Positions 9,711 to 12,700 of a stretch of DNA of 64,000 bases are shown here, piece by piece. The position numbers were made by a program. The DNA comes from Gemmatimonadaceae bacterium (GTDB lineage Bacteria > Gemmatimonadota > Gemmatimonadetes > Gemmatimonadales > Gemmatimonadaceae): positions 28,283 to 92,282 of the forward strand of contig JBBDYC010000003.1 in assembly GCA_040901985.1 (NCBI GenBank), given 5' to 3'. Each line of letters opens with the position of its first letter. Position 1 is the first letter of the stretch.

Positions 9711-12700
9711 GGTGATCGCGTAGTCGAGCGGGTTGAGGCCCGGCAGGCCGCGGCCCTTGGCGCTGACGATCCCCGCCGTCACGGTGAAGTCGAGGCCGAG
9801 CGGGTTGCCGATCGCCAGCACCCACTCGCCGATTTTCAGCGTCTCGTCGTTGCCGAAGGTCGCCGCCGTGAAGTTGCGGCCGTCAATCTTGAGGACCGCG
9901 ACGTCCGTCGTCGGGTCGCGCCCGACGATCTTGGCGTCGAAGACGCGACGGTCCTGCATCGCGACCTTCACCCGGTCCGCGCCCTCGACCACGTGGTTGT
10001 TCGTGAGGATGTAGCCGTCGCGGCTGACGATGAAGCCGCTGCCGGTGGACTCCTGTGTGCGCGGCGGCTGCTGCTCGAACTGGCGGAAGAAGTCCTCGAA
10101 GCCCTGCGGGAGTTGTCGCTGCCGCGCATTGGGCCGGCTGCGCGGATCGCGCTCGGCCTGCACCGAGACCACCGCCGGGGTGATGTACTCCGAGATCGAG
10201 ACGAAGGCGTTGCTCGCCTCGGCAATCGTCCGCACCTCGCCCGTGCTCGGCCGCGCCGGCGCCGCCGTGCCGCCCTGTGCGAAGATTCGGTCGGTCCAGT
10301 CCATCGAGGAGGCGAAGAGCACCCCGCCGACGAACGCGACGCCGGAGAAGATGAGGACCGTCGTGCGATTGAGACTCATGGCGCAGTTCCTAAATAGCGG
10401 GGACAGGCGGGGCCAGTCGGCCCCGCCCCGCACACCTCACACCGTACATCGGTATCTAGTCAGTACCACCGCGGAGGGACAGGGTTTCCGCCCGCCTCAC
10501 GCCTTCTTGTCGTCCACGATCTCGAAGTCCGCCTCGGCGACCTCGTCCTTCGTCGCCTCGCCGGCGGCGGCGTCCGCCGGCACCGCCCCGTCCGACGGCG
10601 CCGCGGCCTGTGCGGCGTAGACCGCCTGACCCGCCGCCTGGAACGCCGCGTTCAGCTCCTCGAGCGCCGCCTTGATCTCGGCCATATCGTCGCCGCGATG
10701 CGCCTTGCGAGCGCGCTCCACCGCGCCGTCGAGCCGCGTCTTCAGCTCGGCCGGCACCTTGTCCGCCCACTCCTTCGACTCCTTCTCCACCTGGTACGCC
10801 AGTGTGTCCAGGCGGTTGCGCGTGTCTATCTCCTCGCGCTTCCGCTTGTCCTCGGCCGCGTTCTGCTCGGCGTCCTTCACCATCCGGTCCACCTCGGCGT
10901 CCGTCAGCCCGCTCGACGCCTCGATGCGGATCTTCTGCTCCTTCCCCGTCGCCTTGTCGCGCGCCGCCACGTGGAGGATGCCGTTGGCGTCAATGTCGAA
11001 GGTCACCTCGACCTGCGGCATCCCGCGCGGGGCCGGCGGGATCCCCGTCAGCTGGAACTTGCCGATCGTCTTGTTGTGCAGCGCCAGCTCGCGCTCGCCC
11101 TGGAGCACGTGGATCTCGACCGTCGTCTGGTTGTCGTCGGCGGTCGAGAACGTCTCCGACTTCTTGGTCGGGATCGTCGTGTTCCGCGGGATGAGCACGG
11201 TGGTGACGCCCCCCAGGGTCTCGATGCCGAGCGAGAGCGGCGTGACGTCGAGCAGGAGCACGTCCTTCTGCTCGCCGGTGAGCACCGCCCCCTGGATGGC
11301 CGCGCCGACGGCGACGACCTCGTCCGGGTTCACGCCCTTGTTCGGCTCCTTCTTGAAGAAGTCCTTGACGATCTCCTGGATCTTCGGCATCCGCGTCGAG
11401 CCGCCGACGAGGATCACCTCGTCCACGGTGGACGGATCGAGACCGGCGTCCTTGAGCGCCTTCTGCATCGGCGGGATCGTGCGCTGCACGAGGTCGTCCA
11501 CGAGCTGCTCGAACTTGGCCCGCGTCAGCTGGTAGTTGAGGTGCTTCGGCCCCGACTGGTCCGCCGTGATGAACGGCAGGTTGATGTCCGTGCTCATGGT
11601 CCCCGAGAGCTCGATCTTCGCCTTCTCGGCGGCCTCCTTCAGCCGCTGGAGCGCCATCGGGTCCTTCGAGAGGTCAATCGCCTGGTCCTTCTTGAACTCG
11701 GCGACCAGCCAGTCAATGACCTTCTGGTCGAAGTCGTCGCCGCCAAGGTGCGTGTCGCCGTTGGTGGACTTGACCTCGAACTGGCGCGTACCGTCGACCT
11801 CGTACAGCTCGAGCACCGAGATGTCGTAGGTGCCGCCGCCGAGGTCGAAGACCGCGATCTTCTCGTCCTTCTGCTTGTTCTTGTCGAGGCCGTAGGCGAG
11901 CGCCGCCGCCGTCGGCTCGTTCACGATGCGGAGCACCTCGAGGCCGGCGATCTTGCCGGCGTCCTTGGTGGCCTGGCGCTGCGAGTCATTGAAGTAGGCA
12001 GGCACCGTGATGACCGCCTTCGTCACCGAGTGCCCGAGGTAGTCCTCCGCCGTCTGCTTCATCTTCTGCAGGATCATCGCCGAGATCTCGGGCGGCGTGT
12101 ACGCCTTCCCCTGGACCTCCACCGACGCCAGGTCGTTCTGCCCGCGGACGACCTTGTACGGCACCCGGGCGATCTCGGTCGTCATCTCCGCCATCTTCCC
12201 GCCCATGAACCGCTTGATCGAGAACACCGTATTGGCGGGGTTCGTCACCGCCTGCCGCTTGGCGATCTGGCCGACGAGCCGCTCGCCGTCCTTGCTGAAG
12301 CCGACCACGGACGGCGTTGTCCGGCCGCCTTCCGCGTTGGGGATGACGACGGGGTCGCCGCCTTCCATCACCGCAACCACGGAGTTGGTCGTACCGAGAT
12401 CGATGCCAATCACCTTGTCTGCCATTCGGTCCTCGAAGGAGTATCTTGAGCGCGGAGTGGTCGGCGGCGTTCGCCGACGGAGTCTTGCCTACTCGTTTCA
12501 ACGGCAAGGGTGGGGCCAGAGATTCGTGCCATTTTGGCTGGTTCTGGCTTTTTTCGCTCTGAATGCCCCTGACAAGACGACGCGATGATCCCCCTGAGCG
12601 ACGACAATCCTACGGTCCGCCTTCCGGTGATGACCATCCTGCTGCTGGCCGCGATGGCCAGCGTCTGGATTCTCGTCCAGAAGGCCGGATTCGACGAGCG

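Follow-up and report, generated by a model that had tools for sequence, protein, structure and literature searches.

A conserved sigma-54 activator as the probable reader of a 13-bp dyad at dnaK and other chaperone promoters of Gemmatimonadota

How is dnaK switched on in a Gemmatimonadaceae bacterium (assembly GCA_040901985.1) whose dnaK promoter region carries a sigma-54 -24/-12 box and a palindrome, and which protein reads that palindrome? The locus lies in the window, that is, the whole analysed stretch of 64,000 nucleotides (contig JBBDYC010000003.1, positions 28,283 to 92,282), and the initial annotation had taken the palindrome for a new operator of an unknown heat-shock regulator of Gemmatimonadales. 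The features of the locus, with positions counted along the window, are:

8847..10379, minus strand: htrA/degP-like protease gene downstream of dnaK (ORF, with the ATG at 10379 used as start; named by sequence recognition)
10497..12425, minus strand: dnaK (Hsp70), 642 aa (ORF with 65-95% identity to 80 loci; named by sequence recognition)
12426..12492, minus strand: predicted 5' leader of dnaK, placed by sigma-54 geometry
12504..12517, minus strand: sigma-54 -24/-12 box GGCCCCACCCTTGC (GG-N10-GC), with GG at 12517-12516 and GC at 12505-12504
12527..12539, no strand assigned: 13-bp dyad AGCCA-AAA-TGGCA, about -47 to -35 with its centre at -41, candidate activator site
12585..13361, plus strand: divergent rhomboid-like membrane protease gene (ORF; named by sequence recognition)

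The GG stands 92 nt ahead of the dnaK ATG and the dyad 9 bp upstream of the GG, and sigma-54 geometry predicts a start site near 12492, 12 nt past the GC. The -24 half of the box is weak (GGCCCC vs. the usual GGCAC), while the dyad, at 17.0 bits, outscores every other site of the genome under a matrix made solely from relatives. The rhomboid-like gene starts 45 bp from the dyad. A scan ahead of the htrA/degP-like gene found neither a sigma-54 box nor a dyad, and its co-transcription with dnaK is possible. An RNA thermometer in the dnaK leader was considered and rejected, as the computed opening of the Shine-Dalgarno sequence shifts little between 20 and 45 °C (0.22 and 0.35 in this genome) and varies among relatives.

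To evaluate the conservation of the box, 80 dnaK loci were fetched, 73 of which include a 5' end, and groES, an NtrX-like gene, reverse strands and shuffled sequences served as controls. The motif GGY-N7-TTGC was present in 67/73 dnaK loci, the relatives counted here and below not being independent of one another; of the six misses, one locus had just 115 nt of upstream sequence and the other five carried labels of other phyla, an hsp20-like gene ending directly upstream in three of these five. Within the last 200 nt, 67/72 dnaK loci had the box, compared with 6 on the reverse strand and a mean of 1.7 (maximum 4) in shuffles. Further, it was found in all 20 dnaK loci of families outside the order and in 25/30 clpB loci (reverse strand 0), and was much rarer at grpE (11/29) and hsp20 (12/29), which bears out the sigma-54 promoters that had been proposed for dnaK, clpB and many grpE and hsp20 genes. 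Deep lineages carry textbook TGGCAC/T boxes, and the GG-N10-GC spacing stays constant while the dyad position varies. A T precedes the GG in 11/14 far, 2/20 middle and 24/86 proximal promoters, classed by dyad distance; a weaker -24 box at proximal promoters is only suggestive, because lineage and G+C confound the comparison. These results indicated that the pattern of sigma-54 box plus dyad lies well above chance and is real. Consistent with the initial annotation, the genome encodes RpoN (TIGR02395, 413.5 bits vs. a cut-off of 277, with the RpoN box ARRTVAKYR) and seven strong sigma-54 activator matches, as well as hrcA.

CIRCE was absent from all dnaK (0/73), clpB (0/30), grpE (0/29) and hsp20 (0/29) loci and preceded groES in 29/30, so that its restriction to groES, as first claimed, extends to the relatives. 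GroESL would remain under HrcA/CIRCE, and the phylum splits cleanly into Hsp70/ClpB under a proposed activator and GroESL under the HrcA repressor.

The dyad itself was described better by YGCCA-WWW-TGGCR (core GYCR-WWW-YGRC) than by the consensus TGYCR-N3-YGRCA given before, which has one mismatch at this very dnaK site. The matrix was trained on dnaK only, leaving clpB as an untrained test set, and all 25 box-bearing clpB promoters have a dyad, 23 of them 9-10 bp from the GG; at dnaK, the gap was 9 in 47 and 10 in 2 of 67 loci. Therefore, the usual enhancer distance of 80-150 bp is not the rule at these promoters. The gap of 9-10 bp that had been proposed as general holds at dnaK here and mainly in the order Gemmatimonadales; elsewhere, the dyad lies at 20, 31, 51 and up to 173 bp, and nine dnaK promoters of deep lineages have even their nearest dyad far off, several of them at 89-173 bp. 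In this genome, the canonical spot is also not confined to dnaK as had been stated, since clpB has a dyad at gap 10 (8.3 bits) plus another at gap 53, while grpE has one at gap 63 (9.3 bits) and hsp20 a weak one at gap 52 (7.6 bits). The positions follow the helix: 58/62 sites with gaps of 13-105 are in phase, with a best period of 10.35 bp, a score matched by 0/10,000 random sets. No second dyad occurred within 200 bp in 34/49 proximal dnaK and 18/23 proximal clpB promoters. A dimer at -35 to -47 would abut the sigma-54 footprint, and could equally block or park the polymerase.

Scored by the consensus with one mismatch allowed, IHF-like sites were seen in 1/67 dnaK, 2/25 clpB and 8/20 deep-lineage dnaK promoters. 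Loss of IHF as the cause of the site moving beside the promoter was rejected, as this genome retains one HU/IHF-family gene whose best score is IHF-like. No second conserved upstream motif was found, the enriched words being coding sequence of the neighbouring gene. A loose composite pattern run over 61 genomes performed per genome no better than its reversed control and is therefore not used as evidence. Similar dyads stand at two Bacteroidota dnaK promoters.

Besides the chaperone genes dnaK, clpB, grpE and hsp20, a genome-wide dyad scan returned one further convincing target in this genome, the operon of the following gene:

Contig C7, 101047-102567, outside the window: candidate sigma-54 activator (bEBP), 506 aa

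A dyad of at least 11 bits occurs no more than 200 nt from the start of this activator gene or of a preceding gcvT/argF in 37/48 loci, compared with 0/21 for the same-locus controls hslU/hslV/xerC and 1/30 for the NtrX-like gene. The dyad takes three positions: ahead of gcvT in the family of this genome, ahead of argF in the next family, and immediately upstream of the activator gene in other classes (10/10 loci). Where argF-gcvT has no activator behind it, in genome G019, there is no dyad ahead of argF. In 14 activator-operon loci, a TTG[AC][CA]N-N16/18-TAnnnT promoter ends 2-14 bp before the dyad. None of the other six activator genes of this genome has an upstream dyad above 4.5 bits. By the automatic count, 11/48 activator loci have no dyad; one of them is truncated and another has a site before an argF that was missed, and activator loci of the Longimicrobiales type showed no dyad. 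No copy of the activator turned up in G051 or G019 (98-99% complete, in about 140 contigs), whose clpB promoters retain strong dyads (L220, L245); a close gcvT is missing from G051 as well, hinting at an assembly gap, whereas G019 has gcvT without the activator. This co-movement marks the activator gene as a target of the dyad-binding protein, and not strictly as the binder.

The candidate protein has an AAA+ domain (PF00158, 231 bits) with a Walker A motif and with GAFTGA in 25 and GSFTGA in 13 of 38 sequences, and a Fis-type HTH (PF02954, 51 bits) for which the structure model gives three helices at 463-502, with an invariant E-R-T-x-Y-R core. At its N-terminus, a receiver-like domain keeps the five-strand five-helix fold in the model, with PF00072 below its cut-off; the phospho-Asp column is occupied by Thr in 35 of the 38 sequences and by Ser in the other 3, and no kinase gene was seen next to the activator gene. 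An extra helix is modelled at 394-421 between AAA+ and HTH, and 156-270 residues follow WPGN, vs. 96-106 in paralogues. The activator occurs in 59/61 genomes, in single copy in 58, while three other activators are patchier (46, 48 and 37 of 61), with E-value cut-offs that differed between the searches and with the activators at C12:74074, C17:166923 and on C8 left out of the survey. A locus-level search for relatives of the activator gene returned only 8 orthologues among 80 loci. In 9/20 genomes outside the order, dnaK and the activator gene are no more than 15 kb apart. A quick tree of 51 rows, made with no bootstrap, placed the activator in one clade with sensor-less activators of Bacteroidota, KSB1 and Ignavibacteria (SH-aLRT 97).

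We consider it fairly probable that these chaperone genes are sigma-54-driven and that the dyad is bound by this one conserved activator, which would act beside the promoter and repress itself. Sigma-54 RNA polymerase would transcribe dnaK, clpB and many grpE-dnaJ and hsp20 genes of Gemmatimonadota, and the dyad would be the binding site of the enhancer-binding protein encoded on C7, which combines a receiver-like domain unable to accept phosphate on Asp, an intact AAA+ domain, the extra helix, a long flexible tether at about residues 422-451 and the Fis-type HTH at about residues 455-506. At chaperone promoters, it would bind one face of the helix and use ATP to open the promoter; the site would have shifted to -41 in Gemmatimonadales, and since it is usually alone there, activation probably proceeds without a DNA loop. 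In front of the activator's own operon, the dyad covers the start of a sigma-70 promoter, which suggests autorepression. The signal is probably protein-folding stress, 'heat shock' control in this phylum being an assumption. Tentatively, and with rather less confidence, we propose that the GAFTGA-intact activator works from a single -41 dyad without loop or IHF, its tether reaching the polymerase, that the Asp-less receiver senses folding stress, and that the protein is a positive Hsp70 regulator throughout the phylum and, in sensor-less form, in Bacteroidota.

The same activator might instead use the -41 site as a brake or parking place, where an inactive dimer blocks or holds the polymerase until, after the signal, activation comes from distal phased sites or free hexamers. 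In favour of this, the -41 site lies directly against the -24 box, the dyad has the look of a repressor site at the sigma-70 promoter of the activator operon, and 15/49 proximal dnaK promoters have a second dyad, often at 51-53. However, the solitary sites at 34/49 dnaK and 18/23 clpB promoters, where other shared words are coding sequence of the neighbour, leave no such distal dyad in the 200 bp, and a gap of exactly 9-10 bp, together with the phasing, suits contact more than steric block. Mapped active clpB, grpE and htpG promoters of Flavobacterium also show a dyad-like half 13-14 bp before the GG (PMC9723704), and we regard the brake as unlikely. That another DNA-binding protein controls both the chaperone genes and the activator operon, as the initial annotation implied, appears less likely still. 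NtrC and NifA sites are longer than the 13-bp dyad, co-movement shows the activator gene to be a target and not strictly the binder, and two genomes keep dyads with no detectable activator; against this, dyads lie 89-173 bp from the sigma-54 box with IHF-like sites between, the position required of an activator, and both HTH and dyad are conserved from Gemmatimonadota to Bacteroidota. As the dyad is phased, found at enhancer distance, present phylum-wide and in Bacteroidota, and tracks the promoter of one activator gene, there is no support, as first worded, for a new operator that always stands 9 bp away and serves an unknown Gemmatimonadales regulator, and an unknown repressor is probably not what binds the dyad.

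Very improbable, in our judgement, is a sigma-70-family factor reading these promoters, with the activator working as a class II protein from -41 like the atypical enhancer-binding proteins VpsR and HsfA. VpsR at -31 to -52 does activate sigma-70 polymerase (PMC6158489), the genome has 19 sigma-70 region 2 matches, and the -24 half is often weak (GGCCCC). Yet GG-N10-GC is invariant while the dyad moves, deep lineages have the textbook boxes, and the GAFTGA loop is intact here and missing from the atypical proteins (PMC6158489). Moreover, TAnnnT follows the TTGC at 16-18 bp in only 2/67, 0/20 and 0/25 promoters, so that the TTGC is no sigma-70 -35, as had been argued before. A sigma-32 promoter (TTGAAA-N11/16-CCCCAT) was seen in 0/72 dnaK, 0/20 deep-lineage dnaK and 0/30 clpB loci, and the one of the 19 sigma-70-family proteins that was scanned scored 167 against an RpoH cut-off of 323.

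Bacteroidota and their relatives activate chaperones without sigma-32, from promoters that are known; no paper naming the activator of these promoters was found, bioRxiv supplements being outside the search. The joint movement of dyad and activator gene singles out one protein and one 13-bp site, and does so in a phylum that is abundant in soil and water and has cultured members. Activation from the solitary -41 site, if it occurs, would break the rule of sigma-54 activators acting from a distance by looping.

In Escherichia coli, NtrC (glnAp2, glnLp) activates sigma-54 promoters from a dyad and represses its own gene's sigma-70 promoter through the same dyad; it works by DNA looping over about 100 bp or more, with phosphorylation of an Asp as its switch. 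The proposed system resembles it in using one dyad for sigma-54 activation and sigma-70 autorepression, and differs in its usually single site at -41, the change of Asp to Thr/Ser, and the lack of a kinase gene seen beside the activator. The sensor-less bEBP subfamily of Bacteroidota shares the ERTLYRK helix and the extra helix between AAA+ and HTH; it has no N-terminal domain and an lptE-like neighbour, a label that we take from sequence recognition, whereas the Gemmatimonadota protein has a 120-residue receiver-like domain and follows gcvT/argF. HsfA, a heat-shock regulator of Myxococcus, belongs to the same protein family as the candidate. The VpsR site (-31 to -52) is also promoter-proximal; however, VpsR and HsfA have no intact GAFTGA and work with sigma-70, while the candidate keeps GAFTGA/GSFTGA and faces -24/-12 boxes (PMC6158489). 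Delta-proteobacteria, described as using HrcA/CIRCE and sigma-32 for heat-shock control (PMC545781), have HrcA/CIRCE at groESL in common with Gemmatimonadota, whose dnaK, clpB and grpE have neither CIRCE nor sigma-32-like promoters.

Sigma-54 control of chaperones is not new, because it was start-site-mapped in Flavobacterium psychrophilum (PMC9723704) and predicted in Bacteroidota and Planctomycetota, with boxes before dnaK, grpE, dnaJ, groES, small heat-shock genes and Clp/Lon proteases (PMC12316311). The main text of the latter, as far as available, leaves Gemmatimonadota unmentioned and describes no activator site, and one supplement lists Gemmatimonas aurantiaca as carrying rpoN; the accessible part of the Flavobacterium study likewise names no activator or activator site. 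Added here are a named candidate regulator and the solitary -41 site, which suggests activation without looping. In Flavobacterium, the mapped sigma-54 promoters (motif SM4) drive groES-EL, lon, dnaK, grpE-dnaJ, htpG and clpB and are induced on blood agar and by osmotic pressure, plasma and freshwater (PMC9723704). The sigma factor and chaperone targets are those of Gemmatimonadota; however, groESL is in the sigma-54 set there and under CIRCE here (29/30), the -12 element is mostly TTGA vs. TTGC, and the dyad-like half lies at 13-14 bp vs. a proximal gap of 9-10 (PMC9723704). Finally, Flavobacterium encodes a 418-aa sigma-54 regulator four genes from groES (PMC9723704), and the Gemmatimonadota activator differs by an extra receiver-like domain.

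A sigma-54-type box (GG-N10-GC), preceded by a 13-bp palindrome (the dyad), lies upstream of dnaK in the window, with the following features.

12425-10497, - strand: dnaK
160 bp up to the divergent gene start at 12585: divergent dnaK/rhomboid-like intergenic stretch
12539-12527, read toward dnaK: dyad AGCCA-AAA-TGGCA, 9 bp upstream of the sigma-54 box
12517-12504, read toward dnaK: sigma-54 box GGCCCCACCCTTGC (GG-N10-GC), 92 nt before the ATG

The window corresponds to contig C3:28283-92282 of the source genome. Judging by sigma-54 geometry, the dnaK start site is predicted near 12492, which would place the dyad at -47 to -35. 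This dyad was the best-scoring site in a genome-wide matrix scan of the source genome, and the closest dnaK relatives are labelled Gemmatimonadaceae. Gene names, except gcvT, rpoN and the activator classes, were assigned by sequence recognition. The rhomboid-like gene (12585-13361, +) is 45 bp from the dyad, and words from its start recur at roughly half the dnaK loci with a proximal dyad. A conserved-looking protein-quality cluster (dnaK, htrA, tRNA-Leu, tig, clpP, clpX, engB) occupies 4498-12425 (-), in which no sigma-54 box was found before htrA, tig, clpP or clpX; a Lon-like gene lies elsewhere in the window (36788-39247, -). Directly before the dnaK start, the leader element CAAGAUACUCC-N-CGAGGA (12426-12450, -), common to close relatives, is able to pair weakly with the Shine-Dalgarno sequence, and showed no clear thermometer-like behaviour.

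The sigma-54 promoter proposed at dnaK in the initial annotation was borne out, as GGY-N7-TTGC occurred within 300 nt upstream in 67/73 loci (80 sampled, 73 with a 5' end); of the six without it, one was truncated and the other five come from other phyla. Within the last 200 nt, the box was found in 67/72 loci, compared with 6 for the opposite strand and an average of 1.7 after shuffling, and in the 61-genome sample of the phylum all 20 dnaK loci outside the order Gemmatimonadales carried it. Among the best 30 loci of each other search, the counts were 25/30 for clpB (56 genomes matched; reverse strand 0), 11/29 for grpE (one locus too short; 60 genomes matched), 12/29 for hsp20 (one too short; 49 genomes matched; reverse strand 4), 2/30 for groES and 1/30 for an NtrX-like control gene. 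Proximal binding with sigma-70 is described for VpsR in the accessible part of PMC6158489, and a sigma-70-type mechanism at the chaperone promoters is very improbable here: as noted initially, TTGC is not a -35, since TAnnnT followed 16-18 bp downstream in only 2/67, 0/20 and 0/25 promoters. A sigma-32-like promoter was found at 0/72 dnaK loci; delta-proteobacteria do use sigma-32 and CIRCE, according to the accessible part of PMC545781. The source genome encodes one RpoN, with its RpoN box intact, and seven strong sigma-54 activator matches, in agreement with the initial annotation.

CIRCE was likewise confined to groES, being present at 29/30 groES loci and 0 of the dnaK, clpB, grpE, hsp20 and NtrX-like sets; the source genome has one HrcA, and CIRCE before groES only. 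At two loci (L299 and L321) the groES upstream region carries a sigma-54 box and phased dyads besides CIRCE, and because these coexist, groES may be under dual control in some species. Two dnaJ genes are present in the source genome, in hemW-hrcA-dnaJ-prmA (contig C9:44543-48002) and in grpE-dnaJ (C16:10829-12558); the latter has a textbook TGGCAC box upstream, and neither a sigma-54 box nor a dyad was found upstream of hemW and hrcA.

A matrix from 49 dnaK sites gave the dyad consensus YGCCA-WWW-TGGCR. The dnaK count (61/72, shuffles 0.5) is partly circular, since the matrix comes from dnaK sites; in the non-circular test on clpB, the dnaK-trained matrix found a site at 25/25 promoters, 23 of them at a gap of 9-10 bp to the GG. 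The palindrome is thus real, whereas the fixed 9-bp spacing claimed for it is not, as gaps elsewhere reach 173 bp. Other gaps were 20-22, 30-32, 41, 49-53, 60-63, 72-74, 83-84 and 94. Between 13 and 105, 58/62 sites lay at most 2 bp off a 10.5-bp phase; the period that fitted best was 10.35, and 0/10,000 random sets scored as high, likewise with each gap value counted once. In the source genome, the other gaps were 10 and 53 (clpB), 63 (grpE) and 52 (hsp20, weak). Longimicrobiales-labelled loci had dyads at 20 plus 51, and several deep lineages had far dyads only (89-173 bp), with textbook TGGCAC/T boxes; IHF-like sites were found at 8/20 deep dnaK loci vs. 1/67 in the main set. These far and phased sites, together with the IHF-like sites, suggest that the same dyad serves some lineages as a normal upstream activator site and in Gemmatimonadales abuts the -24 box; there, 34/49 proximal dnaK and 18/23 proximal clpB promoters have no second dyad within 200 bp. 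A brake is the unlikely alternative for this -41 site. HU seems lost in the source genome (99.97% complete), because the sole HU/IHF-family gene found (C5:1868-2152, L428) is IHF-like; most members of its family have just one such gene.

One strong non-chaperone dyad in the source genome lies before gcvT, which is followed by the gene of a sigma-54 activator (C7:101047-102567; 506 aa). This activator, the candidate for binding the dyad, was found in 59/61 genomes. Across 48 activator loci (40 of 60 matches with upstream DNA plus 8 earlier loci), a dyad of at least 11 bits lay no more than 200 nt from the start of the activator gene, gcvT or argF in 37, compared with 0/21 for the control genes hslU, hslV and xerC at those loci and 1/30 for the NtrX-like activator (best 30 loci). 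The unpublished genome G053 is one row in four counts (a miss among these 48, a hit for clpB), and no claim depends on it. The dyad position shifts with the unit: the own family has it upstream of gcvT and the next family upstream of argF, and in 10/10 loci of other classes it stands 52-81 nt ahead of the activator gene itself, with none at gcvT and argF. In G019, argF-gcvT is not followed by the activator and has no dyad in front of it. The dyad would cover the start at 14 loci, where the end of a sigma-70-type promoter is 2-14 bp upstream of it, as expected of an activator repressing its own gene. An autoregulatory dyad was not found at Longimicrobiales-type activator loci. In 9/20 genomes outside the order, no more than 15 kb separated dnaK from the candidate. 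At L104 and L105, the lon/engB end of a comparable protein-quality cluster faces the activator gene, and a conserved gene of no known family (L083:3651-4517; weak DUF7609 match only) often follows it (L099-L102).

Counting against the candidate, it was not found anywhere in G019 and G051, yet their clpB dyads are kept, as might be if a different protein bound the dyad. That reading is improbable. Three other activators were matched in 46, 48 and 37 of 61 genomes, each at its own cut-off, and were not found in several lineages that retain the sigma-54 chaperone promoter.

In 38 orthologues of the candidate, the AAA+ loop is GAFTGA (25) or GSFTGA (13), the recognition helix GERTLYRK, and the receiver phospho-acceptor column Thr (35) or Ser (3). 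The N-terminal 120 residues are predicted to adopt a receiver fold, with structural matches to NtrX and NtrC1, and an extra helix (394-421) is modelled between AAA+ and HTH, with low-confidence flanks (377-393, 422-451); 156-270 residues follow WPGN, vs. 96-106 in five paralogues. A profile search of five sister-group genomes found a similar protein in four (368-420 residues, no N-terminal domain); it shares the extra helix, reads SERTLYRK and has an lptE-like gene next to it. These four form a clade with the Gemmatimonadota activator (SH-aLRT 97; quick tree of 51 rows, including 15 of the 38 orthologues). In the two Bacteroidota genomes among them, the sensor-less activator gene lies beside groES, and dnaK is preceded in both by a sigma-54 box with dyads of similar sequence; KSB1 has a TGACA dyad variant at 81. 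No dyad of at least 10 bits was seen near the four sister-group activator genes.

The best explanation, which we consider probable, is that the activator at the dyad opens the sigma-54 chaperone promoters and represses itself, with groESL under HrcA. Sigma-54 polymerase would wait closed on these promoters; the activator would bind the dyad as a dimer, assemble on a stress signal and open the promoter with ATP, its long tether allowing activation from -41 without a DNA loop. It would limit its own level via the dyad at its sigma-70 promoter, and groESL would be released separately by HrcA. Motifs, phasing, co-movement and anatomy are observed; we infer that the activator binds, which way it acts at -41 and what it responds to. 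The earlier interpretation is thus partly supported: its sigma-54 promoters stand, its fixed spacing gives way to gaps of 20-173 bp elsewhere, and its unknown regulator to a named candidate.

In Flavobacterium psychrophilum, sigma-54 starts were mapped at groES-EL, lon, dnaK, grpE-dnaJ, htpG and clpB, and the accessible part of that report (PMC9723704) leaves three possibilities standing for the activator; its list for the SM4 promoter motif class includes a rhomboid. Its clpB, grpE and htpG rows carry a dyad-like half 13-14 bp before the GG, so proximal sites are not confined to Gemmatimonadota. Sigma-54 chaperone control was predicted for Bacteroidota and Planctomycetota in PMC12316311, the accessible part of which does not discuss Gemmatimonadota; that of PMC3162934 added nothing specific. 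A literature search, with most subscription journals outside it, found no paper naming this activator or dyad and no report of sigma-54 chaperone control in Gemmatimonadota. The sigma-54 regulon of chaperone genes known from the Bacteroidota group is extended here to Gemmatimonadota, where it comes with a well-supported candidate for the activator, whose receiver lacks the Asp, and with a dyad that stands alone at -41.
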